From the NCBI RefSeq assembly GCF_927798095.1, contig NZ_CAKMMF010000026.1, positions 63,097 through 87,096 of the forward strand: 24,000 bases of DNA. The letters run 5' to 3'. This document shows, piece by piece, positions 4,241 to 22,094 of the stretch. Position 1 is the first letter of the stretch, and every line of letters begins with the position of its first letter. The notes beneath the pieces are model-generated. The model was not told where the DNA came from, ran no database searches, and saw only the letters and a program-made list of their open reading frames with translations. This stretch comes from Paenibacillus plantiphilus (lineage in GTDB: Bacteria > Bacillota > Bacilli > Paenibacillales > Paenibacillaceae). The translations under genes and the position numbers were made by a program.

Positions 4241-5239
4241 CTATGGTGTCAGTTCGGTTCTAAACGGATAGAGCCGGTCCTTCTTCTCTGGATCGGCCAT
4301 CAATTCAAGCATGATCTCGGCCGCTCTCCTGCCCAGCTCGTCATCAGAAACCTTGATGCTCCGAATCGGCTTCAACGCCTCATCCCAGCCGCTTTGGTTA
4401 TAAATGATGCATGGAATATCAGGCTTCTTCTCGATGAAGTATCGGGCAACTCCAATGCTCAGCGTCTCATCGGTGCAAACAACGGCGTCCGCATGGCACT
4501 GCTCGATCAGGCGCTCTGCCATCGCGTATCCATTGCCGACTGCTGCGGCCGCAGCAGCAACAAGCGAATCATCCAGCCCCCTGCTGCTGTCTCTAATGGC
4601 TTTCTTATAGGCTTGATTGCATTCGATGTTCTTGACACAAGGTTCATCATTCTCAAGGAAGGCGATCGCCTGGCGTCCGCCCTTCACCAGCAAATCAGAA
4701 ACGGCCTCGTACAGCATCGAGAAATGATTGATGTAGATAAAGCAGCCCTGCTCATCCTCCATCGGTCTATAGTCGAGAAACAGAACCGGATAGGCCGGAT
4801 CGCTATTAGCAATGAATCGGCATAGCCGAGTGGTAGGCGAGACAATAATAAGGCCATCTACTGCATGCGTCAGCATGCTCCCTATTTGATCCCCATCTTC
4901 ATAGTCCAAGCTGGAGAACAAAATGCCGTAGCCCTTCTCACCCATTGCATGAGAAATCGCGTTAATCATTCCCATGTGCAAGCGCTTGGACGTACCTTCC
5001 CCTATCACAGGCGTAATAATACGGATCATTCTGGACTTCTTGTTCCTCAGATTCTGTGCTGCAGAATTGGGGACATAGTTAAGGCCCTCAATCGTCTTCA
5101 GCACCTTCTCTTTCGTCTCCGGGCTGACATACCGTGTACCGTTAATGACATGCGATACCGTCGCTATAGAGACGCCCGCTCTCCTAGCCACTTCTTTCAT
5201 ACTTCTATCCATCGGTCTTCTATCCATCGGCGTCACCAT
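4241..5239 (-). CDS. LacI/GalR-family transcriptional repressor
   Basis: N-terminal HTH MKEVARRAGVSIATVSHVINGTRYVSPETKEKVLKTIEGLNYVPNSAAQNLR is followed by a periplasmic-binding-protein-like sugar-binding core. The start is ambiguous between 5239, 5227 and 5200; the HTH begins at the ATG at 5200. Only ~30 nt separate it from the downstream kinase-GH32 gene, so the two are probably one operon. Confidence 0.9.
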   Translation of the reverse strand: MVTPMDRRPMDRSMKEVARRAGVSIATVSHVINGTRYVSPETKEKVLKTIEGLNYVPNSAAQNLRNKKSRMIRIITPVIGEGTSKRLHMGMINAISHAMGEKGYGILFSSLDYEDGDQIGSMLTHAVDGLIIVSPTTRLCRFIANSDPAYPVLFLDYRPMEDEQGCFIYINHFSMLYEAVSDLLVKGGRQAIAFLENDEPCVKNIECNQAYKKAIRDSSRGLDDSLVAAAAAAVGNGYAMAERLIEQCHADAVVCTDETLSIGVARYFIEKKPDIPCIIYNQSGWDEALKPIRSIKVSDDELGRRAAEIMLELMADPEKKDRLYPFRTELTP

Positions 5240-5259
5240 TTGAATGAGTTAAACGATTA

Positions 5260-5273
5260 CGTAAACGTTTACG
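5260..5273. promoter_or_regulatory. Perfect 14-bp palindrome CGTAAACGTTTACG, candidate LacI-family operator
   Basis: The sequence equals its own reverse complement. It fits the LacI/CcpA-type operator shape (..AANCGNTT..) and sits immediately downstream of the predicted -10 of the lacI-like/kinase-GH32 operon. A related half-site, GTTAAACGATTAC, abuts it at 5248-5260. Confidence 0.65.
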
Positions 5274-5278
5274 CGAAT

Positions 5279-5307
5279 AATATAGCATAACTTGCAACCC
5301 CTTACAA
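5279..5307 (-). promoter_or_regulatory. Putative sigma-A promoter of the LacI/kinase-GH32 operon
   Basis: The minus strand reads TTGTAA (5307-5302), a 17-nt spacer, then TATATT (5284-5279). The operator palindrome overlaps the expected transcription start. Confidence 0.55.
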
Positions 5308-5382
5308 GAGCCAATACCGCACCGGCCTGGCCTATCCCTCCCCTGAGCCAGTGGGAGAGGATCTGAGGGCTGGCCTGAGTCT

Positions 5383-5458
5383 GGTGGACCGACCGCCGTC
5401 ATGCAGCGAAACACCGCGCTGGGAGCTGCGCACGGTGCGAAGAGGCTGCGTTGGCAGC
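5383..5458. repeat. REP-like intergenic repeat, copy 2
   Basis: ggtggaccGACCGCCGTCATGCAGCGaAACACCGCGCTGGGAGCTGCGCaCGGTGcga... contains hairpin CACCGCGC (5412-5419) / GCGC(A)CGGTG (5428-5437) and a second hairpin GCTGC-gttg-GCAGC (5445-5458). It lies downstream of the minus-strand YceI-like gene. Confidence 0.75.
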
Positions 5459-5612
5459 TCGTCTGCAGCAGCAATCGAGCATGTATTCGCATGTACACAG
5501 CAAAGAGTCCGTCTCATAAGCAGGATTGCCACTCATGGAACAGACTCTTCACAGCTGCAGAAATACAGCAGAACTTGCTATCGGCGGATCATATCCCCGT
5601 CCCCGTCACAAC

Positions 5613-6281
5613 TTAACTTCCCAGAATCAATTGCAAGTTGACGATGATTTCGTCTTCAATAGTCGCTACAGCCGAGCTCGGATTCTCGATGCCGAAATCC
5701 GCGAATGTCACGGCAGTCTTGCCTTTCAGCTTCCACTGATTGCTCTCGAACAGCGCTTCACAATCAAACACAACTTCCTTGTCAATACCTTTCACTTTCA
5801 GCGTACCGGCCATCTGGATATTCACAGGCTTGCCCTCTATCACTTCCTTGGGCCACTGCTTGATCTCGCTCAATTTAAATTCCGCTGTAGGATACTTGGC
5901 GGAGTCCAGCAGCGAACCCTCGACATGCTTGTCCCGCTCCGCAATCCCTGAATCCAGACCTTTGATATCAACAACTGCCGTTGCCGCCATCTGCCCGGGA
6001 TCCTCTGTATGGATCAGCCAGCTTCCACTTACCCGCTGGAAAGCCATGTTAACCTGTTCATTGGACGTGGTGACGCTTAGGTATACTTTGGATTCACCGG
6101 CGATGTCCCAGCTTTTATTCAACAGCTCATTCGGAATTTGATCGCCAGCCTGAAGCTTTTCATTGTCGAATACATCCTTAATGTCAATCTGGTTGCCGCT
6201 ATAGTAAGCAATTAGTAGATATCCACCTGCCAACAGCATTGCCAACAGCACGGACAATACAACCCACTTTTTCAACCTCAT
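5613..6281 (-). CDS. YceI-like domain protein with N-terminal membrane anchor/signal sequence
   Basis: N-terminal MRLKKWVVLSVLLAMLLAGGYLLIAYY is followed by a YceI-like region (KVYLSVTTSNE..., VDIKGLDSGIAERDKHVEGSLLDSAKYPTAEFKLSEI, GTLKVKGIDKEVVFDCEA). GGAGG abuts the ATG at 6281, so the TTG at 6275 is an alternative start. Confidence 0.75.
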   Translation of the reverse strand: MRLKKWVVLSVLLAMLLAGGYLLIAYYSGNQIDIKDVFDNEKLQAGDQIPNELLNKSWDIAGESKVYLSVTTSNEQVNMAFQRVSGSWLIHTEDPGQMAATAVVDIKGLDSGIAERDKHVEGSLLDSAKYPTAEFKLSEIKQWPKEVIEGKPVNIQMAGTLKVKGIDKEVVFDCEALFESNQWKLKGKTAVTFADFGIENPSSAVATIEDEIIVNLQLILGS

Positions 6282-6463
6282 CCTCCCCTTCGCATTTCAT
6301 TTGCCTCACCAGCCTGAAGCTGTCCTCTCCTCCCAATTGTACGGACTGTCGCGCAAGCCAGCATTACAGCAGCATTAAAGTAAAATTAGAATTTGATTAG
6401 AACGGAAGACCCTTCTTCAATCCCCCAATATATTGTTATATGATGGTTGAAGGGGGAGATACT

Positions 6464-7144
6464 GTGAAAAATATCTTAATTATAGAAGACGAAAAACCGC
6501 TGGCAAGATTCCTTGAGCTGGAATTGACCCACGAGGGGTATTTGGTAGAAACCTGTCATAATGGTCTGGACGGTCTGCATAAAGCTCTGCAGGCTCACTT
6601 CGATTTCATCCTTCTGGACCTCCTGCTGCCGCAATTAAGCGGTCTGGAGGTTTGCCGGAAGATTCGCGCAGCCAAAACAACCCCCATCATCATGATCACT
6701 GCAAGAGACGCTGTTATGGATCGGGTAGTTGGACTGGATCTCGGAGCCGATGATTACTTGACCAAACCATTCGCCATTGAAGAATTGCTGGCCCGCATAC
6801 GTTCGCTGGAGAGAAGAATGGTCCCGCTTATGCAGCCAGCGGCAGTAAATTACGTAATCGGAGATCTGACGCTGAATCCTGATACCCACCGCGTTCATCG
6901 GGCCAATCTGCCCATCGCGCTATCGTTAAGAGAATACGAGCTGCTCAAATATATGATGGAGCATCAAGACTCAGCCATTCCACGCAATCAGCTGTTGAAC
7001 GAGGTATGGGGCTATGAGTTCGACGGTGGAACGAACGTTGTGGACGTGTACATCCGATATTTGCGGGCCAAGCTCGATGATGCTCATCCCGTCAAGCTTA
7101 TCCATACTATCCGAGGATTCGGCTATGCGCTAAGACATCCGTAA
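6464..7144 (+). CDS. OmpR/PhoB-family response regulator
   Basis: Receiver domain (ILIIEDE, FDFILLDLLLP, MITARD, KPF) plus a winged-helix DNA-binding C-terminus (LSLREYELLKYMMEH..., VVDVYIRYLRAKLD, IHTIRGFGYALR). The GTG at 6464 is preceded by AGGGGGAG at good spacing. The ORF-track ATG at 6440 lacks an SD. Confidence 0.9.
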   Translation: MKNILIIEDEKPLARFLELELTHEGYLVETCHNGLDGLHKALQAHFDFILLDLLLPQLSGLEVCRKIRAAKTTPIIMITARDAVMDRVVGLDLGADDYLTKPFAIEELLARIRSLERRMVPLMQPAAVNYVIGDLTLNPDTHRVHRANLPIALSLREYELLKYMMEHQDSAIPRNQLLNEVWGYEFDGGTNVVDVYIRYLRAKLDDAHPVKLIHTIRGFGYALRHP

Positions 7145-7160
7145 TTGAGGGGGAAGCCAC

Positions 7161-8498
7161 ATGTCCATGAAGTGGAAGGTAAGCGTACTTATTACTGTTA
7201 CAACAGCAGCCATCCTGCTTATTATTAATACATTCGTCTACTACCAGGTCAAACAAGTGACTGAGGATCGTGTAATGGCATATTTATTGGAAAAGGGCAA
7301 ACGATTGGCTGAACGGATTCAGCCCTCCACGCTGCCCAATATCGATAAGCAGATTGCAAGCTGGATACAGGAGTTCGAGGTTACCCAGGGCATTCAAGTC
7401 GTGCAGCAGGATGGATCGATTCTGTTCGAGTCCCAAACGACACCGGATAGCCGGCTGATTGGCGAAACCAATGCGGGCGTATGCGCCGAGACAGGCGTCC
7501 CTCTATTAGAAAATATAACGATCAGGATCTACGACCGCGCGGAGAAGGAAGAAATTTTCCTCAGCAATTTACAGTGGGTCCTTATTATCGGAAGTCTCAT
7601 CGGCATCGGTCTGGCAGCTATCGTCTCTTATGTCATTGCCGGACTTGCTATCTCCCCACTGCGAAGAATCATCCAGCAAATGCAGGGGATCGGCATTAAC
7701 GAGCTGAATCAGCGGCTGACAGAGCCCCGTAGCAAGGATGAGCTTCACCAGCTGACACAATCCTTCAACCGCCTCATTCAGCGGCTGCAGGGCGGTGTCG
7801 ATCAACTGAAGCAGTTCGTTTCCGACGCCTCCCATGAGCTCCGCACGCCTGTCGCAACCATTGAGGGCCATGCCAACCTGATCAAGCGCTGGGGCAAGGA
7901 TTCCAAGGAAGTATTGAATGAGTCCATCGACTATATTACGAGCGAAGCGCAGCGGATGACTCATTTGACGAACCAACTGCTCCAATTGGCTTATCTCGAA
8001 CAGAATCAGCCCTTGCACAGCTTCGAGCCATCAGAGGTGATCAGCGTCATTCATGATATACAGCATCAGCTAAGTCCCCTGCATGACCGAATAGAGCTGA
8101 CATCGGACACGTATTCACATGCGATACTTGCCGGCATACCGGCCGATATTCTTCAGCAGATTCTGCTCAATGTAGTAGGCAACGCAATCAAATATTCTCC
8201 GAGCGGCGAATGTATCCATATCGCGGTAGACCAGACCAGTCAGGATGTATATATTCATGTGACAGATGCAGGCATAGGGATTCCTGCCGAAGAGCTGCCT
8301 TATATCTTCGACAGATTCTATCGTGTGGACAAATCCCGAAGCCGAGAGTACGGCGGAACGGGTCTTGGATTGGCAATAACCAAGCGTCTCGCCGAATCCT
8401 ATAGCGGCGAGATCACTGTACAAAGCATAATCGATAAAGGCTCTACTTTCACCATCAGACTCCCTCTTGAAACAGAGCACGAGCTTATTTCCGCCTGA
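7161..8498 (+). CDS. Sensor histidine kinase (2 TM, HAMP, HisKA, HATPase_c)
   Basis: Two hydrophobic segments flank a ~110-aa extracytoplasmic loop. It has H-box SHELRTP, N-box LLNVVGNAIKYS, G1 DAGIGI and G2 GGTGLGLAI. It starts 17 nt after the response-regulator stop and has a GAGGGGGAAG SD. Confidence 0.9.
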   Translation: MSMKWKVSVLITVTTAAILLIINTFVYYQVKQVTEDRVMAYLLEKGKRLAERIQPSTLPNIDKQIASWIQEFEVTQGIQVVQQDGSILFESQTTPDSRLIGETNAGVCAETGVPLLENITIRIYDRAEKEEIFLSNLQWVLIIGSLIGIGLAAIVSYVIAGLAISPLRRIIQQMQGIGINELNQRLTEPRSKDELHQLTQSFNRLIQRLQGGVDQLKQFVSDASHELRTPVATIEGHANLIKRWGKDSKEVLNESIDYITSEAQRMTHLTNQLLQLAYLEQNQPLHSFEPSEVISVIHDIQHQLSPLHDRIELTSDTYSHAILAGIPADILQQILLNVVGNAIKYSPSGECIHIAVDQTSQDVYIHVTDAGIGIPAEELPYIFDRFYRVDKSRSREYGGTGLGLAITKRLAESYSGEITVQSIIDKGSTFTIRLPLETEHELISA

Positions 8499-8519: not shown

Positions 8520-10025
8520 TTAATCCGCCGTATCCAGCTTAATCGTCTCAATATGCCGGTGCATCGCGCCATACCCGTTCGCCGTCTGTGCGATATAGTT
8601 AAGAACGGTGTCGCTCCAGCCATAGATATAGAAGGTATTCTGATCCTGCTGCGGCGTCATTGCATGCCGATAAGGCGCAATGTCGATAATAAATGCCTTT
8701 ACGTCCCGATTGACGGACGCTCTATATTGCTGCAAGGCGACATAGAACGGGCTGCCGCTGTTCTGCTGCTCGTCTGTAATAATGATGATCTGATCGACCT
8801 TGCGGCGCTCGTGGAGCAGCTTGCGAATCGGAGCGCCTGTATCTGTTCCTCCGCGTGCCCGAATACGCTCGGCCTGCGTTAGAATGCTGTCGCGCCGCGA
8901 TGGTCTGGCATCCTCCACCTCGGTATTGAACAGCCAGAACAGGGAGCTACCATTCGTCTTCTTGTACAGAGCCAGCGCAAATACAGAGCCAATCTGCAAA
9001 TAATCACCGCTCATGGAGCCGGAAATATCGAGGAAAATCGCTGTCCTGTCCGCCAAGTCCGGCAGATTCACGAACGTCAATTCCACTGCATCCCGAAGCG
9101 CGTCCCGCAGCACCGGGTGATCCACCTGCCCGAACGCTTTCGCGAATCGGAACGGGAGAATCTTCGCCTTCTCCAATGCCCGCTGATCGGTCAAGCGGCG
9201 AACCGCTGCCGCCACATTAGCCGGGTCATCCATCACGCCTTCACGCTGCAGCGTGTTCAAATGACGCAGCAGCGCGAAGGTCGGCATCTGATGAAACAGC
9301 GCTTCCCATACTGCCCGGGAAGGCTTGATGGCGCCGGTGACGATCTCGTAGGGCAGCCTGCCCTTATTGATCCAATGCAGCTGCTCCGCTTCCGTCGCCG
9401 CCTGCTTCAACCGCTCGAACGCCTCCACTTGCGGAACAAGGAGCAGGTTCGCTTCCTTGCCGCGCAAATAGCGGTACAATGCCTGCTGCTTCAAGTCAGC
9501 CGGCTTCGGGTGCGCGGTCGCAATTGCGTCGCCCAAGCTGTAGCCGCGTCCCCGTCCATTGTACTTCAGCGCCCAATATTCCGAGATGCCGGATAGAAAA
9601 CGGTTCACCTGTCTTTTGACCGCGCGGCCACCCTCTCCACGCCCCAATCCACGCATAATCATTAGAAAATCGGACAAGTCCGAAGGGATTCGAATCACTT
9701 GCAGGAATATAGGCGCGAACAGGTCCGGGCGATAGAGGGATAGAATGGCCAGCCCGAATATCGGCTGCAGCCGCATATAGCCTTCATTGCGCGCAAAGAC
9801 GACAGCCTGTGCCATGAACTGCGGATTGCTTCTCGCCATCTCATGGTGCAGCTCAACGGATTCTGATAGAAGCTCCTGCCCGTCCGCATAGAACGTATTG
9901 CCCAATGTATTGGTCATCAGCGTCTGCACATACTGCTCTTCGGCAGAACGGATGTAGGCGGGATAACCGTCTTTATTCCTAGCAGTCGGTCTGATCACCG
10001 AGAATAATTTTTTTGCAAAGCTCAT
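8520..10025 (-). CDS. rsr: Ro60-related protein Rsr (TROVE domain plus vWA domain)
   Basis: 501 aa counted from the ATG at 10025 (MSFAKKLF), which is preceded by AAGGAGG at 8 nt. The ORF-track start at 10073 has no SD. The N-terminal two-thirds look like a helical TROVE region (GYPAYIRSAEEQYVQTLMTNTLGNTFYADG..., AVVFARNEGYMRLQP). The C-terminus is a vWA fold with MIDAS motif FLDISGSMSG ... GGTDTG ... IIIITDEQ. A Y-RNA-like gene directly upstream supports the call. Confidence 0.85.
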   Translation of the reverse strand: MSFAKKLFSVIRPTARNKDGYPAYIRSAEEQYVQTLMTNTLGNTFYADGQELLSESVELHHEMARSNPQFMAQAVVFARNEGYMRLQPIFGLAILSLYRPDLFAPIFLQVIRIPSDLSDFLMIMRGLGRGEGGRAVKRQVNRFLSGISEYWALKYNGRGRGYSLGDAIATAHPKPADLKQQALYRYLRGKEANLLLVPQVEAFERLKQAATEAEQLHWINKGRLPYEIVTGAIKPSRAVWEALFHQMPTFALLRHLNTLQREGVMDDPANVAAAVRRLTDQRALEKAKILPFRFAKAFGQVDHPVLRDALRDAVELTFVNLPDLADRTAIFLDISGSMSGDYLQIGSVFALALYKKTNGSSLFWLFNTEVEDARPSRRDSILTQAERIRARGGTDTGAPIRKLLHERRKVDQIIIITDEQQNSGSPFYVALQQYRASVNRDVKAFIIDIAPYRHAMTPQQDQNTFYIYGWSDTVLNYIAQTANGYGAMHRHIETIKLDTAD

Positions 10026-10104
10026 GAAGAGCGCCTCCTTGATAGATCGGCGGGAAGAGGAGCAATACCCCATACATAAGCCGATTAGTGATGATTATTA
10101 ATTT

Positions 10105-10209: not shown

Positions 10210-10371
10210 GATGAAGCGATTGCAGATCGATTGAGGAAAAGGACGGAAAGGTGCCGCTCTACCATCTGAGCTATCCCGCCTTGCGGCGGGAGTTGGACTC
10301 GAACCAACGACATGCCGATTGGAAGTCGAAGTAACCCTTCCATGCGCCTCAATGATCTTCGCGAAGCATCC
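10210..10371 (-). ncRNA. yrlA: YrlA-class bacterial Y RNA candidate with circularly permuted tRNA-like domain
   Basis: The minus strand reads GATCATTGAGG-cgcat-GGAAGGGT-(25 nt)-GTTGG ttcgagt CCAAC-TCCCGCC-gcaa-GGCGGGA-ta-GCTC agatggta GAGC-ggc-ACCTTTCC-gtcctttt-CCTCAAT(C)GATC. That gives a canonical T arm (10308-10292). A 7-bp acceptor stem is capped by a 4-nt loop (10291-10274), with the 3' strand before the 5' strand. A canonical D arm with GG follows. No anticodon arm is present. In its place are an 8-bp helix and an 11-bp helix with one bulged C (10357-10347 / 10236-10225). The core spans 10225-10357; the outer limits are uncertain. It lies immediately upstream of rsr on the same strand. 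Confidence 0.7.
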
Positions 10372-10483: not shown

Positions 10484-10492
10484 TGTTATAAT
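10484..10492 (+). promoter_or_regulatory. Extended -10 promoter element (TGtTATAAT) for the GNAT-ABC-GNAT operon
   Basis: TG-n-TATAAT lies at 10484-10492, about 30 nt upstream of the ATG at 10523. The -35 region is poor (atggcg), which is tolerated at extended -10 promoters. Confidence 0.5.
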
Positions 10493-10522: not shown

Positions 10523-11074
10523 ATGAGCTATTACTTTCAAATCTGCGCAACCGAGCGCTATCAAGAAAAGTACATCAGCTTCTTACTTGAGCATTATTCA
10601 GCACTCAACCTGCCCTATTCATTCCCAGTGGCGCTGAGCTATATTGCTAGTCCCGTTCTTATGACTGAAGAAGCTATTCTATACTTTGACCATAATGATG
10701 AAATAGCAGGCGCACTCGGATACATATACGGAACTGGCGAGCAGCACTATCAGGATACGGGCATCGTTCAGCTCCAAACTATATTTCTATTGGATAAGTA
10801 CCGCGGAACCCGTCTTTTCCTGGAAGGCCTGCAATACCTCACACAATATTTGGCGCAGCTCGACAGGGGGATCACAGAGCTTCGATTCTGGGTCCCAGCA
10901 AATAATCCGCAGCTTCGCCGATTGTGCGGCAAGCTGGCTCAGCGAACCGTCTCCGGCGAGACCGCCTTCGGAATGATAGACGAATACAGGTTGCCACTGC
11001 CACAGCTGCAGCAATATGTCGCCCGCTTCCGTCATGAATCCTACTTTGAAACCTATCGAGGGCATACAGTATGA
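10523..11074 (+). CDS. GNAT-like (acyl-CoA N-acyltransferase fold) protein, paralog 1
   Basis: 183 aa from the ATG at 10523, preceded by AAGGGGAG. The ORF-track start at 10406 would overlap the Y-RNA region and has no SD. It has a GNAT-like beta4-alpha3 segment IVQLQTIFLLDKYRGTRLFLEGLQYLTQYLAQ followed by ELRFWVPANNPQLRRLCGKLA. Its TGA stop overlaps the ATG of the ABC gene (ATGA at 11071-11074). It is a clear paralog of the 13242..13766 product. Confidence 0.7.
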   Translation: MSYYFQICATERYQEKYISFLLEHYSALNLPYSFPVALSYIASPVLMTEEAILYFDHNDEIAGALGYIYGTGEQHYQDTGIVQLQTIFLLDKYRGTRLFLEGLQYLTQYLAQLDRGITELRFWVPANNPQLRRLCGKLAQRTVSGETAFGMIDEYRLPLPQLQQYVARFRHESYFETYRGHTV

Positions 11075-13227
11075 TCATGGTCCTTCGAAATCTGGCAAGC
11101 TATCTTCGCCCGTACAAGCTGCTGTCCTTCCTCTTTTTTGCCGGACTGTTCCTGGATCTCGCTTTCGTTTCTCTTGCTCCCTTGAGCTTCAAGTTCATGG
11201 TGGACAACGCGATCATCCCCCATGATTTCGGACAATTCTACCTGATCCTCTCCATCCTTGGAATCGCAGGCTTAATTGGCTTCAGCTCAGGCATTATAAG
11301 CGACTACATATTATCCAAATTGAGCGCCCGCGTACAAAGAGACCTGCGCAGCGGCTTATTCGCTCACCTTCAACATGTGAATATCGCCTTCTTCCAGCGC
11401 ACTCGCGCCAGCGACCTGCTCTCCTATCTCTCTGGCGACTTATCCGCAATCGACCGGGCAATGACGGTCATTCTGACGACAGGCATTCAATCTGTGTCCG
11501 TTGTAATCATTAGCGCGGGCGTGCTCTTCACATTAGAATGGAGCATGGCCGTACTCGTACTGATCGGCGCCGTTCTTATATTCACCGGACCTTACCTGCT
11601 CGGCGGACGTGCTCAAGCCATCAATGCCCAGTACAAGGATCAGATGTCGCTTATGACTGGCGATGTCCAAGAGAACATTAAAGCACAGCGGGTCATTAAA
11701 GGCTTCCATCTGCAGCAGCTCATGATCGACAAGTTCCATACAAGACTGCAATCCTTATTCGTCATCGATTATAAGAAGAATGTGATCAACTCCAGTCTGG
11801 AGCGCATCCCGATGATTAGTCTGCTGCTGATCAACTTCACCATTATCGGGTTCGGCTCCTACCTTGCGCTGCAAGGCCAAATTACGGTAGGCGCGCTTGT
11901 CGCGTTCTTCACGATGTATACCTCGATGGGCAACTCGGTATTCAACCTGACCTTCGCTATTCCGGCTTTCACAGATGCGAAGGTGAGCATGGATCGCATT
12001 CAACAGCTTCTTGTAGAGCTGCCCGAAGCCAATGGGACAGTGCAGCTCCAGCCGCTGCCGAATCAACAGCTTGACATTGAAGCCCGCGAGCTGACTTTCC
12101 GATATGCGGAAAAGCAGGATGTATTGAAGGACATTAACCTGCATATCCCGCCAGGAACGACGGCAGCATTCGTAGGCTCCAGCGGCTCCGGGAAAAGCAC
12201 GATGGTGCAGCTTATTCTCGGCTTCTACGCCCCCAACGAGGGGCATATTCGAATAAACGGCATCAGCCTGCAGGAAATGGACAAGGGCTCCTTGCGTGAG
12301 CAGATCGGCATTGTGTTTCAGGATAACTTCCTTTTTCGGGGCACGATTATGGACAATTTACGTTTGAGCAAGCCCCATGCCACCAGGGAAGAAGTGATTC
12401 AAGCGGCTGCAAAAGCCGAGATTGACGGCTTCATTCAAAGCCTGCCGGATGGTTATGAGACCGAGGTACTGGATGAGGGAGGCAATTTCTCCGGCGGTCA
12501 GCGCCAGCGAATAGCTATCGCCCGCGCTATCCTTAGAGATCCGCAGATTCTGCTGCTCGACGAGGCAACCTCCGCTCTGGACCCGATCTCGGAAGCCTCC
12601 ATTAACGAAACGTTCCGCCGCTTAGCGCATAATCGCACGGTGGTCACCGTCACTCATCGGCTGTCTGCAATAACGGATGCGGACCAAATTTTTGTATTTG
12701 ATCAAGGAAAGCTGATCGAAAGCGGCACTCATAGAGAGATGCTCGCTGCAGAAGGGTACTATAAAGAGCTGTGGGATAAGCAGAACGGACTGTCTGTATC
12801 GCCAAGCGGCGAAGAGGCGGAGATTGATGAGAACCGGCTTGCGAGACTGCCTTTTTTCCGAGATATGAACATTGACGTGCTTCGCGAAATCAAAGATTTA
12901 TTCAACACAGAAACATTCAGCGCCGGACAAGCGGTCATTCATGAGGGGGAAGCAGGCAACAAGTTCTATATCATCGCCCGCGGCAAAGTAGAAATTTCAA
13001 AACGTCCCGTTGGAGATGCAGAGCGCATCCGGTTAGCCATACTCGCGGACGGGGATCACTTCGGGGAAATTGCGCTGCTGGAAAATGTCCCGCGAACTGC
13101 GGATGTATCGGCATTGACGGAATGCACCTTTCTTACCCTGCAGCGCAAAGTGCTTCATTATGTCCTGTCTCAATATCCCGAGCTTGATGCCCGCGTCCGA
13201 GAGAAGTTAAAGGAACGCTACAACTAG
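11071..13227 (+). CDS. ABC exporter half-transporter (6-TM type I exporter TMD plus NBD) fused to a C-terminal cyclic-nucleotide-binding (CAP_ED) domain
   Basis: The N-terminal ~300 aa are hydrophobic helices. The NBD has Walker A GSSGSGKST, signature FSGGQRQR, Walker B ILLLDEATSALD and H-loop VTHR. The last ~132 aa (nt ~12829-13224) form a cNMP-binding domain: LPFFRDMNIDVLREI..., GEAGNKFYIIARGKVEI, and phosphate-binding cassette FGEIALLENVPRTADV with the conserved Arg. Confidence 0.9.
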   Translation: MIMVLRNLASYLRPYKLLSFLFFAGLFLDLAFVSLAPLSFKFMVDNAIIPHDFGQFYLILSILGIAGLIGFSSGIISDYILSKLSARVQRDLRSGLFAHLQHVNIAFFQRTRASDLLSYLSGDLSAIDRAMTVILTTGIQSVSVVIISAGVLFTLEWSMAVLVLIGAVLIFTGPYLLGGRAQAINAQYKDQMSLMTGDVQENIKAQRVIKGFHLQQLMIDKFHTRLQSLFVIDYKKNVINSSLERIPMISLLLINFTIIGFGSYLALQGQITVGALVAFFTMYTSMGNSVFNLTFAIPAFTDAKVSMDRIQQLLVELPEANGTVQLQPLPNQQLDIEARELTFRYAEKQDVLKDINLHIPPGTTAAFVGSSGSGKSTMVQLILGFYAPNEGHIRINGISLQEMDKGSLREQIGIVFQDNFLFRGTIMDNLRLSKPHATREEVIQAAAKAEIDGFIQSLPDGYETEVLDEGGNFSGGQRQRIAIARAILRDPQILLLDEATSALDPISEASINETFRRLAHNRTVVTVTHRLSAITDADQIFVFDQGKLIESGTHREMLAAEGYYKELWDKQNGLSVSPSGEEAEIDENRLARLPFFRDMNIDVLREIKDLFNTETFSAGQAVIHEGEAGNKFYIIARGKVEISKRPVGDAERIRLAILADGDHFGEIALLENVPRTADVSALTECTFLTLQRKVLHYVLSQYPELDARVREKLKERYN

Positions 13228-13241
13228 GAGGCTTCCCTATT

Positions 13242-13766
13242 ATGACTGCACATCATCTCCGAATCTGCCGAACGGACGAGGATTTCGTCCAATTCACGCT
13301 CTTTTTCATCCGGCACCGTAAGGATTTCAGCAGTAATTTCAGTCTGTCCGACACGTTGATACACACGCTGGAAACGATTCAGACCTCAAATATTCAACTC
13401 ATCTTGGACGAGAGCGATCGAACAATTGGCTGGGTGATCTACCGCTATGTTACAGCGGACTACGAGCCACATCCCCAGGGTGAAATCGTCTTTATAGATT
13501 CAGTGATTATTGCTAGGGAGTATCGCAGCAGCCGCTTGTTCGTTACCGGCCTGCGCCAGTTGCTCCGACATATTGCAGCAGAGAACCGTCATGTGCGCAC
13601 CTTTCAATTCTTCGCCCTCCAGAATGACCGCTATTTGACCCGGCTGTATTCCAAATTCGCCACAATTACGGGGCAGAGAGACGGCTATCACGGAACAGAA
13701 AACATATTTTCCAATAATTTCTATAATGTTTTAAAATACTTTGATATATCTGACAATTTAAGTTGA
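13242..13766 (+). CDS. GNAT-like protein, paralog 2
   Basis: 174 aa, with GGAGG 9 nt upstream and a start 14 nt after the ABC stop. IVFIDSVIIAREYRSSRLFVTGLRQLLRHIAA...TFQFFALQNDRYLTRLYSKFA aligns position by position with paralog 1 (YR-x-x-RLF, GL, N-x-x-L-x-RL-x-K-x-A). Confidence 0.7.
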   Translation: MTAHHLRICRTDEDFVQFTLFFIRHRKDFSSNFSLSDTLIHTLETIQTSNIQLILDESDRTIGWVIYRYVTADYEPHPQGEIVFIDSVIIAREYRSSRLFVTGLRQLLRHIAAENRHVRTFQFFALQNDRYLTRLYSKFATITGQRDGYHGTENIFSNNFYNVLKYFDISDNLS

Positions 13767-13792
13767 CCCCATATTATTCCACATGATATTCT
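13763..13792 (+). promoter_or_regulatory. Putative promoter for the small ORF
   Basis: TTGACC (13763-13768), an 18-nt spacer, then TGaTATTCT (13784-13792, extended -10 type). It lies about 45 nt upstream of the small ORF's ATG. Confidence 0.4.
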
Positions 13793-13836: not shown

Positions 13837-13944
13837 ATGTTTCCACCAAAAGCTGGATTCAATAACAAGGGTAAGAAAACCCCTCTTTCATTCGCTGATT
13901 TGCTTAAGCTTAATGAGCAGCTTCGCGTATCTGCTGCAAAATAA
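13837..13944 (+). CDS. Small basic protein, 35 aa (MFPPKAGFNNKGKKTPLSFADLLKLNEQLRVSAAK); below the ORF-track length cutoff
   Basis: A near-consensus SD, TAAGGAGGTG (13822-13831), lies 5 nt upstream of the ATG. It has its own candidate promoter. The stop at 13942-13944 is 17 nt before the IS left end. The central segment KK-x-x-LSFADLLKLNEQL reminds me of the FbpB-type small basic proteins of Bacilli, but that is from memory only. Confidence 0.5.
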   Translation: MFPPKAGFNNKGKKTPLSFADLLKLNEQLRVSAAK

Positions 13945-14048
13945 TCCGTTTCATATTACGAACAGAAGGCTGTCCCTTTAAGTGATATGCTCCCCATACA
14001 GTAGACAGGTGAAATAATAAAACCTGATACTGTAAGGGGAGTTTTTTT

Positions 14049-14726
14049 ATGCATAAAAAGAAGCATACAGCTTCAGAGAAATTAGCAATCATTCAGGAAA
14101 TTGAGAGTGGTCGTATTGGCGTTAAAGCTGCTGTTAAAACATTTGCTGTTTCCAAAACATCCTTAGCGAAATGGCGACGAACGTATCGGCTGTTTGGCTA
14201 TGAAGGACTAGAGGCTCAAACCCATAACCGAAGCTATTCCACCGAGCTTAAGATTCAAGCTGTAAAAGACCATCTTGAAGGGGGCTTGTCTCAATACCAA
14301 GTTATCGACAAGTACAGGATTGCAAGCAGAACACAACTCGCGAACTGGATTAAGAAGTATAATGGTCATATCAGCCTTCGAGCTTATACAGGGGGAATAA
14401 CAGCTATGACCAAAGGACGCACAACAACATGGCAGGAGAGGATCGACATTGTCCTTTATTGCCTGGCAAATGGACAAGACTACAGGAAGACAGCGGACCA
14501 ATTCCAAGTCTCCTACCAGCAAGTGTACGGATGGGTAAGGAAACATAAAGCAGGCGGCCAAGAGGCTCTGCGAGACGGAAGAGGACGCACAAAAGCGCCA
14601 GAGGAGCTGACGGAGTCGGATCAGCATAAACTTGCCCTGAAGAAGATGGAGTACGAGAACGAACGGCTCCGGGCGGAGAATGCATTCTTAAAAAAGTTGC
14701 AGGAATTAGAAAGGAGGCGACTCTAA
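14049..14726 (+). CDS. IS3-family transposase OrfA (HTH domains plus leucine-zipper-like C-terminus)
   Basis: HTH segments occur repeatedly (SEKLAIIQEIESGRIGVKAAVKTFAVSKTSLAKWRR; LSQYQVIDKYRIASRTQLANWIKKY; DYRKTADQFQVSYQQVYGWVRKH). The coiled-coil tail is LALKKMEYENERLRAENAFLKKLQELE. Confidence 0.9.
   Translation: MHKKKHTASEKLAIIQEIESGRIGVKAAVKTFAVSKTSLAKWRRTYRLFGYEGLEAQTHNRSYSTELKIQAVKDHLEGGLSQYQVIDKYRIASRTQLANWIKKYNGHISLRAYTGGITAMTKGRTTTWQERIDIVLYCLANGQDYRKTADQFQVSYQQVYGWVRKHKAGGQEALRDGRGRTKAPEELTESDQHKLALKKMEYENERLRAENAFLKKLQELERRRL
14690..14696 (+). promoter_or_regulatory. Programmed -1 ribosomal frameshift heptamer A_AAA_AAG
   Basis: In the orfA frame the codons are tta-AAA-AAG (14688-14696). 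The -1 frame is open from here to 15604 (KKVAGIRKEATLSEQRQENVYLAIQ...). This is the classic IS3/IS150 slippery motif. Confidence 0.8.
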
Positions 14727-15604
14727 GCGAGCAACGACAAGAGAACGTCTACCTTGCTATCCAAGCCGTACAGCAAGCGGAGTCGCTTAGCATACAGGTT
14801 CTGTGTGAGGTTGCGGAGATCCCACGATCGAGCTATTACAAGTGGCTGAATCGTATTCCCAGCACTAGAGAAACGGAGAACAAAGCGCTAACGGAGGTCA
14901 TGATGGCCTTGTACGAGAAAGTCGAAGGCATATTCGGCTATCGCCAATTACCACTCCATATGCGACGCCAAACCCAGAAATCAATGAACCACAAACGCGT
15001 GCAACGCTTGATGAAGATAAAGGGAATCCAGTCGGTGATCCGCAGAAAGAAAAAGAAGTATGAGCGTTCTACGCCGCAGCAGGTGGCCGAGAATGTATTG
15101 AACCGCGAGTTTCAAGCGGAGGCACCGAACGAGAAGTGGCTAACGGACGTAACGGAATTCAAGTACGGCAATAGTCAGAAAGCGTATTTAAGCGCGATAC
15201 TCGATCTTCATGATAAATCGATCGTCTCTTATGTATTCGGACATTCCAATAATAATCCGCTTGTATTTGAGACGTTAAAATTGGCCTTAATATCCGTATC
15301 CGAGAGCAAGCCATTGCTTCATAGCGACCGTGGCTTTCAGTATACTTCTTTACGGTTTAAGGAAATGCTCGATAAGGCTGAGCTCAAGCAGAGCATGTCT
15401 CGCGTTGGCTGTTGCATTGATAACGGTCCCATGGAATCCTTCTGGGGAACTTTGAAATGCGAGAAATATTATTTGCATACCTACCAGACCTTTGAACAAC
15501 TGAAAAGTGACATTGATGACTACATTCACTTTTACAATTACGAACGATTGCAGGCAAAATTAAACGGCCTCAGTCCTATGGAATTCAGGACAAAGGCCGC
15601 CTAA
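14696..15604 (+). CDS. IS3-family transposase OrfB portion (DDE/rve integrase core), expressed as an OrfAB fusion by -1 frameshifting
   Basis: The -1 frame relative to orfA is continuous from the slippery site onward. The catalytic region has WLTDVTEF (D), LHSDRGFQYTS (D) and NGPMESFWGTLKCE (E). The ORF track only reports the segment from the internal ATG at 14900. Confidence 0.85.
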   Translation, partial: VAGIRKEATLSEQRQENVYLAIQAVQQAESLSIQVLCEVAEIPRSSYYKWLNRIPSTRETENKALTEVMMALYEKVEGIFGYRQLPLHMRRQTQKSMNHKRVQRLMKIKGIQSVIRRKKKKYERSTPQQVAENVLNREFQAEAPNEKWLTDVTEFKYGNSQKAYLSAILDLHDKSIVSYVFGHSNNNPLVFETLKLALISVSESKPLLHSDRGFQYTSLRFKEMLDKAELKQSMSRVGCCIDNGPMESFWGTLKCEKYYLHTYQTFEQLKSDIDDYIHFYNYERLQAKLNGLSPMEFRTKAA

Positions 15605-15702
15605 CTGATTTTTATTTATTGTTCTGTCTACTTGACGGGGTGCAGTTCATAAGAGCTAATAGCTCCTAAGGGACAGCCTTCTGTGTTGCTTGTTGTTTGT
15701 AT

Positions 15703-15842: not shown

Positions 15843-18800
15843 TTATGCCACGCCCTTAAGCCGATCGGCGAGAACACGCATCATGCTTCTTAGGACCTCA
15901 ATATTTTGGAAGCAGAATGTCAATACCTGCTCTTTGTGCAGCCTCAGCAGCACAGCTGCGCTTACCACGGTACAATCCGCTGAACGCGGGCCGCTGTCAA
16001 TGATGGACATTTCCCCGAAAAAGTCGCCTTCCCCAAGCACTGCCAGTTCATCGCTTCCACGATGCACACGAACGACTCCTTCAATAATCCCGTACATCGT
16101 ATCTCCGAATTCGCCTGTCCTGCATATAACCTCGCCCTGCTCGTAGCTGACCTCCTCCACATGCTGGGCCAGCCATATGAAGTCCGCTGGCGCTAAATGA
16201 GCGAACAGATCCATCTTTTGCAGGACCAATACTCGCCGGAGAATAGCGGCATCCGTCAATTGCCTCACCGTATCATCCAGCTCTAAGGAAGGAGCGGCCT
16301 CCGAATGGGCGGCACTGGGTTGAACTTCAACCGCCTTCCCGTTTCGACCGTCTGCGAGCTCTAGTACAGCTCTGAGCCTGCGAGATAACAGCTTCATCAT
16401 CTCCAGCACGATGCTCGACTGATCGAACATCATATCATAGAAGTCGGAAGCATGAAGCTTCCATATTCCAATACTCTCTTCCGCGCGGATCGTAGCCGTT
16501 CGGGGCCCCTGAGTCAGAACAGCCAGCTCACCGAAGCAATCGCCCCTGCTCAGCTCGCTGATCGGTTCGCCATTCCGATAGACGCCTGCTCGCCCTTTAT
16601 CCACAATCATAAGCGAGTCGCCTGGCTCCCCTTCATGAATAATGATGCTGCCCTTATCCATGCTGACCTTCTGCAATCGCTGTGCAATGACAAATAGATG
16701 TCTACTCGTCAAGCCTTGAAACAACGATACCTTTCGCAATAGCCGCACGCGTTCCAGCCGATCAGACAGCCGGTTGAATAGTTCCGCTGTATCCTGTTCC
16801 TCTGACTGTCCAGCCGTTTCCTGTCCCTTCTCCTGGAGCATAAAGAAGGTAACCGTCTCACGAAACCACTCGTCTCCCTGAGAAGCGAGCCAGCTCAGTT
16901 TCTCTTCTCTCTGGACTTCGCTATGAGGAGCTGGCGCAATGGCTCTTGGAGCGGACATTAATTTCGCCATCTGGAGCCGAAGCTTCCCGCGCAGCGTTTG
17001 GTCGATCACTTCTTCAGCGTTAGCCTGCCGCCTCGCATCCCCTTCCGACCAGTTTATATATACGGCCTGTATCGTAGGCGCATCATAAAGCAAGGACAGC
17101 AGCTGGAAGATACGGCGGGAGATTCCACTTCGAATTTCACCAATCATGCCTTCTAGTTCGGCATAGCGCGCATCTCCGCTGACGGCCGTTCCATGCTCGC
17201 CATACTGCCAGTACAATTGCAGCTCTTGCGAAATAAGGCGTTCCAGCTCCTGGCTGTCACCTTGCAGCAATCCTGTATCCATCCGAAGCAAGGATTGCAG
17301 GATGCGGTCCCGCAGCTCCTGATTAGCAGCCTCGTAACATGCAAACAGACTCTCGAATGCCCTCTGCGTGCCCATTCGTTCAAAGATAGCCGGCAAATGC
17401 AAGCTAACCTCTTCATTGTCCATATAGGGCTGCAGCTGCGAGAGCATCTCCTGCTCATCATAGCCAGCCAGCGCATCAATTGCATATCGTCTCGTCCGGC
17501 TGTTCTTCAGGCTTCCTATTATTGACGGAATCAAAGCAGGAACGCGCAGCATAGCCGCCGATTCCAACGCTCGTTTCTTCACCTTCGTGCTGCGATCATC
17601 CAGCAATGGGAGAAGCGGCTTATAGAAGCTTGCAACACCAATCTGTCCGAACAGCGCTGCCATAGCAGTTCGTTCTTCCTCTCGGCCGCTCTCAATCAGA
17701 AGCTTAAGCTGGCCAACCGCTCTGAACATGCCCTCAATGCCATAATATTTGATCAAACCAGCGATAGCAGCCGCTTGGATCTGTATGGATTCCGCCTCCA
17801 GACAGCTTGCAATCTCATCCAAATACGCTTCTTCCGCATAAGCAGCGAGCGCAAGAATGGCCCCGGCCTTAACTTCGACGACCGCCGCCGAGCTTGCATA
17901 GGATTGCAGGAGGGGCTCGAAGCCTGCTGGCAGCGTTTCTTCCACAACCTGCAACGCCTCGATGCGAACCTCAGACGCAGGATGTTGAAGCAGCGCCCTT
18001 ATATGAGGGGTCAAATCAAACGTCTCCAGCCCACGCAATATACGAATAGCATACAAGGTTTGCTGCTTGTCAGGACTGGATAATGCAGCAAGCAATAGCT
18101 GCATGCTGGAGGGGTCCACGAAATCGAGCTCCATCCGTTGAAGCTCGCCCTTCCCCGTTTGCAGGCTGGTCATAAGCGCATGCAAATACGCTTTCTTCAC
18201 CTTGACGCCGTAAACAATTCCCACAACAAGCAGGACAATTACGATATAGCTCAGCTGTTGCGGTGCAACCAGCTGTGTAACAACGAGCAAGCAGATGGCC
18301 GCAAGTCCTTTTGCCCCATTCCGCACGATGCCGTCCAGGAAGCTCTTGGCCTTTCCGCGCCATTCCGGGGGAATTGGGAACATCACGAGCTGATTCACGG
18401 AAGAATAAATCGTATCCCCGACAGCCTTGTCACTGCCCTTAACGATAACTGCCATGACCAGAATAGGCAGAAGCATGATTCCGAAGCTGCCTGCTGCCAG
18501 CACGACCGGGAAGATGAGCAGCGAAGTCATAACACCGAACCGCGTTAACACGCGGCCGGCAATAAACAGCTGTACGAATAGAGCAATAAGTCCCGAGTAG
18601 CCGTAGAAGCTGCCCATGAATCCCGCCAACTCATCATTTTGCAAGGAAGTCCTTAATATGACTTTGAACTGGTAATCTATCAAGGTTAGCGACATTACAA
18701 TTGCGACAGATAGAATAGCGATATATTTCAAATAGGGAACATTGGCAAAAAGCCCTGAATTGGATTGCGCTGCCCTCTTGGAGGAATTCGACCTGCGCTG

Positions 18801-19445
18801 TACAGGTCTGGCCTCTTGAGAAGACGAGGATGCGCTATCCTTCAAGATCAGAACTGCAAGGAGACATAGCAAATGAAGCCCCGCGTAGACATAGATCAGA
18901 TTCGCCGTCCCGATGCTCGGAGCCAGCGCCTTCAGCCCGAAGCCGCTCAAGATTCCGCCTGTTATTCCGCCGCTTCCTACGATTCCGATCATTCGCTTCG
19001 CTTTTCGCTGGTCCATAACGGATGTGGCGAACTGCCAAAAACAAACGATCATCAGAAAGTTGATGACATCATAACCGACATAAATAACGGGAAACACCCA
19101 GCGCAGCTCCAACCCGACGCCAACTCTTGAGACAAGAACCAGCGCCGCTGTGAGCGGAATTAAACCGATGATCAAGCGGTCCATTCGTATTCGATGGGAG
19201 AAGCGTTGATATACGAGGCTTGCAACAATCATCGCAGCCGCCAGCGGCAAGTACATATAAGACAGGGACGAATTATCAAACCGACTTAGAAAAAGCGTAT
19301 CCGCAGTCGTTCTTCCAATGGTAGAAGCCGCCGCAACGCAAAATAAATAGCCGAACAGGATGAATACCTTCCGATATTCTTCCCGATCCGCTGAAAGCTT
19401 GTTCCCAATATTCCGAGATGCTATACCCGCTATGAAGCTGCCCAT
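15843..19445 (-). CDS. Large multidomain membrane protein: N-terminal ~12-TM transporter domain (MFS fold, TLC/Npt ATP:ADP-antiporter-like), HEAT-repeat region, two tandem C-terminal cNMP-binding domains
   Basis: About 1200 aa from the ATG at 19445 (MGSFIAGIASR), preceded by GGGGGAA. The ORF-track start at 19508 has no SD. The N-terminus REEYRKVFILFGYLFCVAAASTIGRTTADTLFLSRF and about 12 hydrophobic helices run to ~nt 18110. HEAT-like repeats follow (SPDKQQTLYAIRILRGL, HPASEVRIEALQVV, DDRSTKVKKRALESAAML, SRTRRYAIDALAGY). cNMP domain 1 (~16374-16763) has FGELAVLTQGPRTATI. cNMP domain 2 (~15846-16247) has FGEMSIIDSGPRSADC. Confidence 0.88.
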   Translation of the reverse strand: MGSFIAGIASRNIGNKLSADREEYRKVFILFGYLFCVAAASTIGRTTADTLFLSRFDNSSLSYMYLPLAAAMIVASLVYQRFSHRIRMDRLIIGLIPLTAALVLVSRVGVGLELRWVFPVIYVGYDVINFLMIVCFWQFATSVMDQRKAKRMIGIVGSGGITGGILSGFGLKALAPSIGTANLIYVYAGLHLLCLLAVLILKDSASSSSQEARPVQRRSNSSKRAAQSNSGLFANVPYLKYIAILSVAIVMSLTLIDYQFKVILRTSLQNDELAGFMGSFYGYSGLIALFVQLFIAGRVLTRFGVMTSLLIFPVVLAAGSFGIMLLPILVMAVIVKGSDKAVGDTIYSSVNQLVMFPIPPEWRGKAKSFLDGIVRNGAKGLAAICLLVVTQLVAPQQLSYIVIVLLVVGIVYGVKVKKAYLHALMTSLQTGKGELQRMELDFVDPSSMQLLLAALSSPDKQQTLYAIRILRGLETFDLTPHIRALLQHPASEVRIEALQVVEETLPAGFEPLLQSYASSAAVVEVKAGAILALAAYAEEAYLDEIASCLEAESIQIQAAAIAGLIKYYGIEGMFRAVGQLKLLIESGREEERTAMAALFGQIGVASFYKPLLPLLDDRSTKVKKRALESAAMLRVPALIPSIIGSLKNSRTRRYAIDALAGYDEQEMLSQLQPYMDNEEVSLHLPAIFERMGTQRAFESLFACYEAANQELRDRILQSLLRMDTGLLQGDSQELERLISQELQLYWQYGEHGTAVSGDARYAELEGMIGEIRSGISRRIFQLLSLLYDAPTIQAVYINWSEGDARRQANAEEVIDQTLRGKLRLQMAKLMSAPRAIAPAPHSEVQREEKLSWLASQGDEWFRETVTFFMLQEKGQETAGQSEEQDTAELFNRLSDRLERVRLLRKVSLFQGLTSRHLFVIAQRLQKVSMDKGSIIIHEGEPGDSLMIVDKGRAGVYRNGEPISELSRGDCFGELAVLTQGPRTATIRAEESIGIWKLHASDFYDMMFDQSSIVLEMMKLLSRRLRAVLELADGRNGKAVEVQPSAAHSEAAPSLELDDTVRQLTDAAILRRVLVLQKMDLFAHLAPADFIWLAQHVEEVSYEQGEVICRTGEFGDTMYGIIEGVVRVHRGSDELAVLGEGDFFGEMSIIDSGPRSADCTVVSAAVLLRLHKEQVLTFCFQNIEVLRSMMRVLADRLKGVA

Positions 19446-19553
19446 GCAGCAGTTCCCCCAATTCGCTGTCTGTGTCCATTTACTGAAATAACATAACAAT
19501 GTTTTCATAGATAAGCAATATTGAGACAGCGGTCACCACAACCTATACTGCTA

Positions 19554-21982: not shown

Positions 21983-22094
21983 TGAATTAATACATGTAAT
22001 TAGGGTGTATTTATTCCCTAAATATAGTTGAGTGATCTATCATTTAGAGTTAAAATTATACAGACAAAATCTATCAATGGGAGTGGAACAACAG

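Follow-up and report, generated by a model that had tools for sequence, protein, structure and literature searches.

A peptide gene beside two divergent GNAT-fold proteins suggests a possible, as yet undescribed system of soil bacilli for modifying and exporting a peptide

What is the role of an operon in which an ATP-binding cassette (ABC) exporter with a C-terminal cyclic-nucleotide-binding (cNMP) domain lies between two related proteins that resemble GNAT acetyltransferases? This question is raised by a 24,000 nt stretch of Paenibacillus plantiphilus DNA (assembly GCF_927798095.1, contig NZ_CAKMMF010000026.1, forward-strand positions 63,097-87,096), referred to henceforth as the window. A sequence-only reading of the window had described three genes, here termed g1, g2 and g3, as a translationally coupled operon. 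The three open reading frames (ORFs), the ATGA at 11071-11074 in which the stop of g1 overlaps the start of g2, and the 14-nt gap with GGAGG between g2 and g3 (TAGGAGG-N10-ATG before 13242) could all be read in the sequence, and the operon claim was borne out. However, that reading ended the operon at 13766 and omitted a peptide gene, pep, and a terminator. We found that the window operon consists of four genes, followed by the terminator:

10523-11074, + strand: g1, 183 aa, ORF with a GGGGAG ribosome-binding site
11071-13227, + strand: g2, ABC exporter with C-terminal cNMP domain, 718 aa, ORF and Pfam
13242-13766, + strand: g3, 174 aa, ORF with GGAGG 10 nt upstream
13837-13944, + strand: pep, gene of a 35-aa peptide, translation MFPPKAGFNNKGKKTPLSFADLLKLNEQLRVSAAK

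The pep gene starts 70 nt past g3 and has AAGGAGG 8 nt upstream. Small genes homologous to it adjoin the cassette in Aneurinibacillus soli, Cohnella herbarum and Paenibacillus kobensis. Loci carrying the cassette (cited below, where needed, by numbers with the prefix L) were fetched and searched with hidden Markov models (HMMs) for g1, g3, the ABC core, the cNMP region and the peptide. The 53 fetched loci, 52 of them distinct, belong to Paenibacillus, Brevibacillus, Aneurinibacillus and Cohnella. Every one of the 52 contains g1, g3 and the peptide gene together, and a precursor-like peptide gene adjoins g1 and g3 each time, as in the biosynthesis of peptides that are made on the ribosome and modified after translation (RiPPs). 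The layouts were as follows:

g1 - ABC(cNMP) - g3 - pep, the form in the window: 21 of 52 loci
g1 - ABC without cNMP domain - g3 - pep: 4 of 52 loci
pep - g1 - g3 - ABC(cNMP): 1 of 52 loci
a different ABC exporter directly upstream of g1 - g3 - pep: 2 of 52 loci
g1 - g3 - pep, including one g1::g3 fusion (L037): 22 of 52 loci
pep - g1 - g3: 2 of 52 loci

An ABC gene thus stands in or beside the cassette in 28 loci, 22 of which have the cNMP domain. In 25 loci the exporter gene lies inside the cassette with translational coupling, and in one it follows the cassette; the two upstream exporters are more distant relatives (approximately 190-200 bits, versus 480-1240 for those inside the cassette). 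The three-gene arrangement described by the sequence-only reading does recur in other genomes, but as a conserved unit the triad does not hold, since 24 of the 52 loci have no ABC gene and 6 of the 28 ABC genes have no cNMP domain. Because g1, g3 and the peptide gene occur in all 52 loci and the ABC gene in 28, the conserved unit is the peptide together with the GNAT pair; the exporter is shown to be a frequent but optional insert, which itself comes with or without the cNMP domain. Export is therefore not obligatory, and, as the exporter or its cNMP domain is so often missing, gating by a cyclic nucleotide cannot be the core of the mechanism. A search for conserved neighbours of the exporter-less cassettes found none, and the genes flanking the cassette are otherwise unrelated between lineages.

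A scan of 185,579 species genomes (one genome per species) yielded 49 loci with a relative of g1, all from Paenibacillus, Brevibacillus or a Bacillus-labelled relative. As far as sampled, the cassette is confined to Paenibacillaceae, and no g3 homologue was found in plasmid or phage collections. This sporadic distribution fits an accessory trait better than core physiology; the hosts belong to genera known for secondary metabolites.

An intact ORF homologous to pep was present in all 53 fetched loci, preceded in 51 by a clear Shine-Dalgarno sequence (AAGGAGG or close) and in the other two (L014 and L026) by GGGGG only. The peptides are 32-45 aa long and share a common layout, in which the N-terminal two-thirds (M-x-P ... 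LLKxNEQxR) are conserved and the C-terminal tail is variable. The N-terminus reads M-[FYIVL]-P in 51 of the 53, the two Brevibacillus fluminis loci having an extra residue before I-P. It is followed by a motif [NS]E[QL], mostly NEQ, in the context LLKxNEQ[LV]R or a near variant. The tail comprises 4-13 residues, almost only A, S, T, V, P and G, and ends in Lys in all 53 loci. Among 31 close, non-independent pairs, the codon differences in pep were 155 synonymous and 156 nonsynonymous, and these near-equal counts imply purifying selection; pep is a real coding gene under constraint. No model of Pfam, NCBIfam or PADLOC matches the peptide. The peptide alignment was too variable for a profile search of loci from the peptide side. 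A degenerate DNA pattern for LKLNEQLRV gave 20 matches in metagenome contigs, approximately the number expected by chance, none of them beside a g1 or g3 homologue; the 7 of these 20 with a readable frame were unrelated ORFs.

The two proteins that accompany the peptide are homologous to each other, as the sequence-only reading had proposed. BLASTP aligned g1 and g3 at E 4e-14 with 25% identity over 146 residues, and a profile-profile comparison of the two families (hhalign) gave a probability of 99% and E 4e-18 over the full length, indicating that they are true, if divergent, paralogues. The g1 family has 31 members, all from Paenibacillaceae, and the g3 family has 26; taken together they form a small, distinct family, for which 1.84 billion representative proteins yielded 163 at E <= 1e-3. 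Their assignment to the GNAT superfamily stood at the level of the fold and failed at the level of sequence thresholds. On Pfam Acetyltransf_1, g1 scored 17 bits, under the cut-off of 20.7; g3 had no GNAT match in Pfam; no NCBIfam or PADLOC model reached threshold for either protein; and profiles of the two families found solved GNAT structures among PDB sequences at E 0.1 to 0.8 only. The assignment therefore rests on predicted structure. AlphaFold2 models built from the family alignments had a mean predicted local distance difference test score (pLDDT) of 87.3 for g1 and 88.4 for g3, and both show the GNAT order b1-a1-a2-b2-b3-b4-a3-b5-a4-b6. Against the PDB, Foldseek returned 422 matches at E <= 1e-3 for the g1 model (best E 1.4e-7, TM score 0.66) and 573 for the g3 model (best E 3.8e-8, TM score approximately 0.65); the top 50 listed for each were all GNAT acetyltransferases, at 10-18% identity. 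The predicted GNAT fold of g1 and g3 thus holds at fold level.

In canonical GNAT enzymes, the pyrophosphate-binding loop of motif A, after strand b4, reads Q/R-x-x-G-x-G/A. The loop after b4 reads R-G-T-R-L-F in g1 (within DKYRGTRLF) and R-S-S-R-L-F in g3 (within REYRSSRLF), so that both degenerate acetyl-CoA loops noted by the sequence-only reading are present and neither follows the canonical motif. R-x-x-R-L-F is the majority loop in both families; its first Arg is the only invariant loop residue in the combined alignment. Furthermore, an invariant Cys at the end of strand b1 (Cys8 in g1, Cys9 in g3) is kept in distant relatives too. The motif-B-like segment YLxRLYSKFA of g3 contains an invariant Tyr136, and the corresponding helix of g1 has Phe or Cys in its place. 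Because the Tyr is kept in g3 and absent from g1, analogy with known GNATs suggests that g3 may be the catalytic partner of the pair.

The g1 and g3 genes are always adjacent or parted by the ABC gene alone. In Paenibacillus sp. MMO-177 (L037, 7977-9044) they form a single uninterrupted frame of 356 codons, through either a natural fusion or a mistake in the assembly; in the related strain MMO-58 and in P. glycanilyticus the two genes are separate. A metagenome locus (L058) contains a distant g3-like/g1-like pair whose genes overlap. As a separate observation, GNAT genes that do pass the Pfam threshold and are canonical stand directly beside the cassette in several unrelated loci (L002, 11436-11987, - strand; L003, 9304-9840, - strand; L034, 7401-7847, - strand; L040, 9349-9744, + strand). 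These could be there by chance, such genes being abundant in the host genomes, or could be partners of the immunity type.

The exporter encoded by g2 has the composition that had been read from the sequence, a type-I ABC half-transporter (six-helix ABC_membrane, then ABC_tran) with a CAP-type domain behind the nucleotide-binding domain. Pfam recognised all three domains: ABC_membrane at 1e-36, ABC_tran at 2e-34 and cNMP_binding at E 4e-20 (residues 614-702, scoring 72 bits where the cut-off is 27.5). The phosphate-binding cassette of the last domain is intact, as had been claimed. The domains lie at the following positions:

approximately 11140-11928, + strand: transmembrane domain, Pfam ABC_membrane
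approximately 12124-12573, + strand: nucleotide-binding domain, Pfam ABC_tran
12910-13176, + strand: C-terminal cNMP-binding domain, Pfam cNMP_binding
13060-13104, + strand: phosphate-binding cassette of the cNMP domain, translation FGEIALLENVPRTAD

The nearest NCBIfam models to g2 are those of MsbA, HlyB, HepA and bacteriocin exporters, each under its cut-off. Pfam found no Peptidase_C39 domain in g2, whose transmembrane domain begins at residue 24. In an alignment of 108 full-length ABC-cNMP sequences (the window protein and 107 homologues), Walker A, the signature, the Walker B Glu and the H-loop are conserved and intact. In the phosphate-binding cassette, F-G-E is conserved in 100%, Arg675 in 96%, Thr676 in 88% and Ala677 in 96% of sequences, and this conservation argues for selection on the domain to bind a ligand that carries phosphate. 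Homologues of g2 with the same three domains and the same length are numerous. Those examined at >= 50% identity (L053, L054 and L057) lie in the same cassette; relatives at approximately 40% identity, from Cohnella silvisoli and a Nannocystaceae genome, occur by themselves in other, unrelated settings. An ABC exporter with a C-terminal cNMP domain, found in more than 100 proteins of Bacillota, Myxococcota and Proteobacteria, is therefore not unique to the cassette. A limited literature search found no characterised example of such a C-terminal fusion, and no nucleotide cyclase gene was found in the window or the sampled loci.

A second protein with cNMP-binding domains is encoded nearby. The gene at 15843-19508 (- strand) specifies a 1221-aa membrane protein with a TLC/MFS-like transporter domain, HEAT repeats and two cNMP-binding domains, and proteins of the same kind flank the cassette in Paenibacillus oenotherae and Brevibacillus parabrevis (L004, 11549-15214, - strand; L039, 4268-7774, - strand). 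The two cNMP-sensing membrane proteins may be recurrently associated.

The signals for transcription found in the window, together with a mobile element that is not part of the system, are:

10484-10492, + strand: candidate sigma-A extended -10, TGTTATAAT, consensus match 30 nt before the g1 start
13750-13792, + strand: promoter-like sites at the end of g3, CTGACA-16-TATTAT (10/12) and TTGACC-18-TATTCT with TG
13962-13978, + strand: left arm of the intrinsic-terminator hairpin, 17-nt perfect inverted repeat
15668-15684, + strand: right arm of the same hairpin, 17-nt perfect inverted repeat
13983-15649, + strand: IS3-family insertion sequence with 40-nt imperfect terminal inverted repeats
14049-14726: orfA of the IS3 element, helix-turn-helix domains
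14900-15604: orfB of the IS3 element, rve integrase-core domains

The terminator arms are 1689 nt apart in the window, where the IS3 element sits in the loop of the hairpin with TAAG at each flank. In L057, which is 92-97% identical and lacks the element, the arms are contiguous and form a perfect hairpin with a 17-bp stem right after the peptide gene; the unit thus ends with this gene. At the other end, about half of the loci have TGnTATAAT, TATAAT or TATACT approximately 33-47 nt upstream of g1, which suggests that expression depends on the housekeeping sigma factor and not on one of sporulation. A reading of the peptide as a spore protein was set aside in view of the sigma-A-type extended -10 in many loci and the sporadic distribution. 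The promoter scan at the end of g3 gave 8 sites, compared with 4.7 +/- 2.0 in shuffled sequences, weak evidence for a possible internal promoter boosting the peptide gene.

Several neighbouring genes were also recorded. An orthologue of Ro60/Rsr (TROVE and Ro60 vWA domains) lies at 8520-10073 (- strand) and is adjoined by a Y-RNA-like element with a tRNA-like domain at 10253-10315 (- strand). The element scored 38.6 bits (E 4.9e-7) against Rfam YrlA, below the gathering score of 69; ARAGORN and default Rfam missed it, and neither program matched anything in the window at default thresholds. The same Ro60 gene precedes the cassette in L057. In 11 loci (L027, L028, L030-L033, L035, L038, L040, L041 and L052), a membrane histidine kinase of approximately 725 aa and an OmpR-type response regulator are encoded divergently from g1, at approximately 4900-7830 (- strand). 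The window has a different, smaller two-component pair upstream (6440-8498, + strand), with the Ro60 gene between this pair and the cassette. A 564-aa ORF at 22032-23726 (+ strand) had no Pfam match at E <= 1e-5.

How might these parts work together? Since the peptide gene is invariably found beside the GNAT pair, the likely substrate is encoded in the operon itself and is not some small molecule from elsewhere. In the account that we favour, tentatively and as somewhat short of probable, a GNAT heterodimer acylates the peptide and an ABC dimer exports the product under nucleotide control. Here g1 and g3 would pair up in a heterodimer, much as tandem GNAT domains do in acyl and aminoacyl transferases, and would modify the peptide by acyl transfer, probably onto Lys; the invariant C-terminal Lys would be the foremost acceptor candidate, and the other Lys residues of the peptide would be candidates too. 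Because the pyrophosphate loop reads RxxRxF, the acyl donor would probably be bound in a manner other than that canonical for acetyl-CoA. The N-terminal two-thirds of the peptide may serve as the recognition or leader part, and the tail of small residues ending in Lys may be the business end. Where the exporter is present, its homodimer would export the product, and the C-terminal CAP-type domain would tune transport in response to a cytoplasmic nucleotide.

The pairing of g1 and g3 is supported by their adjacency, the single frame of L037, the overlapping genes of L058 and their paralogy over the full length. A role of the peptide as a precursor is suggested by analogy, as a conserved N-terminal part with a variable tail is the layout of modified-peptide precursors. 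The link to export is consistent with the coupled exporter inside the cassette, its intact ATPase motifs and its conserved phosphate-binding cassette. A more specific version of this account, which we consider rather doubtful, would make the peptides a new family of acylated ribosomal peptides: their sole maturase would be a divergent GNAT heterodimer with an invariant Cys and a loop of the R-x-x-R-L-F type, and their release would be gated by a cyclic nucleotide at the exporter in ~40% of lineages.

Several points weigh against acylation and export of the peptide. The peptide has no leader of a recognised type (NHLP, Nif11 or double-glycine), its tail contains no Cys and few reactive residues, and the cassette includes no protease gene. 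Co-occurrence was sampled starting from g1 and not from the peptide side, and 24 of the 52 cassettes have neither an exporter nor a conserved neighbour. The non-canonical CoA loop means that either g1 or g3 could be catalytically inactive. Modification, donor and acceptor in the proposed acyl transfer are hypothetical, and the heterodimer idea rests on gene linkage and on one fusion, possibly a sequencing artefact.

A live rival is self-immunity conferred by the pair, an idea that the sequence-only reading had also raised. The peptide or a fragment of it would then be the active exported product, for example an antimicrobial or a pheromone; the GNAT pair would acetylate those molecules that stay behind or form anew in the cytoplasm, in the manner of MccE with microcin C and TfxH with trifolitoxin, and the exporter would be the first line of protection. 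GNATs do serve as immunity proteins beside peptide-antibiotic operons (bioRxiv 10.64898/2025.12.02.691738), MccE is among the Foldseek matches of g3 (ranks 28 and 34), and the cassette holds no other enzyme able to mature the peptide. However, immunity GNATs are usually single, canonical, dispensable and separately regulated, whereas here two paralogues share the operon of the peptide and are conserved alongside it more tightly than any other gene. Half of the cassettes lack an exporter, and the peptide is neither hydrophobic nor Trp-rich, unlike unmodified bacteriocins. We therefore regard self-immunity as improbable. The model put forward by the sequence-only reading also appears unlikely, namely that the GNATs modify an amino acid, a polyamine or an antibiotic and that the ABC protein exports it under cyclic-nucleotide control, the peptide being a regulator or unrelated. 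It would agree with the best Foldseek neighbours, which are GNATs of small molecules (phosphinothricin, spermidine and aminoglycoside acetyltransferases and PaiA), and with an ABC core as near to the MsbA and multidrug exporter families as to peptide exporters, but these structural matches are generic (TM score ~0.65, 10-18% identity), and the model leaves unexplained why all 52 loci combine the GNAT pair with a peptide gene of invariant features, when so many of them have no exporter.

A further reading makes the cassette an intracellular module, in which a small cytoplasmic or structural peptide is switched by acetylation at its N-terminus or at Lys and the ABC protein was recruited secondarily. 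In keeping with this, the 24 cassettes without an exporter have unrelated neighbours, the N-terminal acetyltransferases RimL, RimJ, Naa50 and Naa60 are among the structural matches, and the N-terminus M-[FYIVL]-P of the peptide is conserved. The explanation nevertheless has only a small chance of being right, given that an ABC exporter accompanies 28 of the 52 cassettes in three positions (the two upstream ones being distantly related), that g1 is translationally coupled to the ABC gene, and that the occurrence of the cassette is sporadic (49 of 185,579 species genomes). Far less credible is a toxin-antitoxin or anti-phage function, whether as a GNAT toxin with a small antitoxin or as a cyclic-nucleotide effector of the Pycsar/CBASS type. 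GNAT toxins exist, and the cNMP domain resembles that of the Pycsar TIR effectors (PycTIR) in PADLOC at E 5e-11, but that match reflects generic domain similarity, and no PADLOC model matches g1, g3 or the peptide. Moreover, the window and the sampled loci have no cyclase gene, g3 has no homologue among plasmid or phage records, and GNAT antitoxins typically have a DNA-binding fold, which the peptide lacks.

If the peptide is the substrate, the cassette would be a minimal system of three to four genes that makes and exports a modified peptide without a maturase of a recognised type, and if the proposed acylation is correct, a split, divergent GNAT pair would be a new enzyme solution in ribosomal peptide chemistry. 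Gating of the exporter by a cyclic nucleotide would place peptide secretion under second-messenger control at the level of the transporter, and the cassette would offer a tractable case for studying how a cNMP domain behind the ATPase domain controls an ABC exporter. As this exporter architecture is widespread, its lessons would apply beyond the cassette.

The literature searched contains no description of the cassette, in agreement with the earlier statement that no characterised system has this architecture; several known systems share parts of it. Among the closest are the selidamide pathways (KspN, PhaN and NpuN; PMC8784127, PMC13647313), which also place a gene-encoded peptide beside an enzyme of the GNAT superfamily. 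In the selidamides, the GNAT maturases transfer acyl groups to Lys or Orn residues that lie terminally in the core of the ribosomal peptide (PMC8784127), and the clusters often contain ABC exporters. In contrast, the cassette has two divergent paralogous GNATs and no further maturase, neither a lanthionine synthetase nor an arginase, its exporter lacks a C39 peptidase domain, and its peptide, at 32-45 aa, has no NHLP or Nif11 leader (no leader match in Pfam or NCBIfam). Any modification in the cassette is hypothetical. The immunity GNATs, namely the C-terminal domain of MccE (microcin C) and TfxH (trifolitoxin and tiarins), likewise stand beside a precursor-peptide operon with an exporter. However, these are single, canonical acetyl-CoA enzymes alongside maturation enzymes (MccB; TfxB, TfxC and TfxE), whereas the GNAT pair of the cassette is its sole enzyme-like component and is more conserved than the exporter.

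In FemX/MurM, the aminoacyl-phosphatidylglycerol synthase domain and N-myristoyltransferase, two GNAT units, one of them often degenerate, act as one enzyme. These tandem-GNAT transferases act on a peptide or lipid amine, and their donor-binding loops are non-canonical. They are single polypeptides, and their likeness to g1 and g3 is one of shared fold, which we take as a lead only.

For the exporter, a close parallel is HetC of Nostoc PCC 7120, likewise an ABC exporter of the HlyB/bacteriocin type fused to a ligand-binding domain of the CAP family and thought to regulate the export of a small peptide. The cNMP-type domain of this peptide-exporting transporter is required for its function and, located at the N-terminus, binds ppGpp (guanosine tetraphosphate) in vitro (PMC10986499). 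A C39 peptidase comes next in HetC, whereas the domain of g2 is C-terminal, after the nucleotide-binding domain, and the protein has no peptidase; moreover, the phosphate-binding cassette of g2 is of the canonical cyclic AMP/cyclic GMP type (G-E ... R-T-A). Ligands differ among members of this fold, HetC with its ppGpp being one case. Peptidase-containing ABC transporters (PCATs) have an N-terminal C39 cysteine-peptidase domain, which g2 does not. GNAT-RHH (ribbon-helix-helix) toxin-antitoxin systems pair one canonical GNAT with a DNA-binding antitoxin of approximately 90 aa, unlike the two non-canonical GNATs and the 35-aa peptide found here, and the Pycsar/CBASS arrangement of a cyclase beside a cNMP-sensing effector is not that of the cassette. 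Taken singly, the GNAT fold, the ABCB-type exporter, the CAP-type domain and the small precursor-like peptide are all of known kinds. Novelty seems to lie in the way they are combined, in a GNAT pair that is split and divergent, and in a sensor domain placed at the C-terminus.

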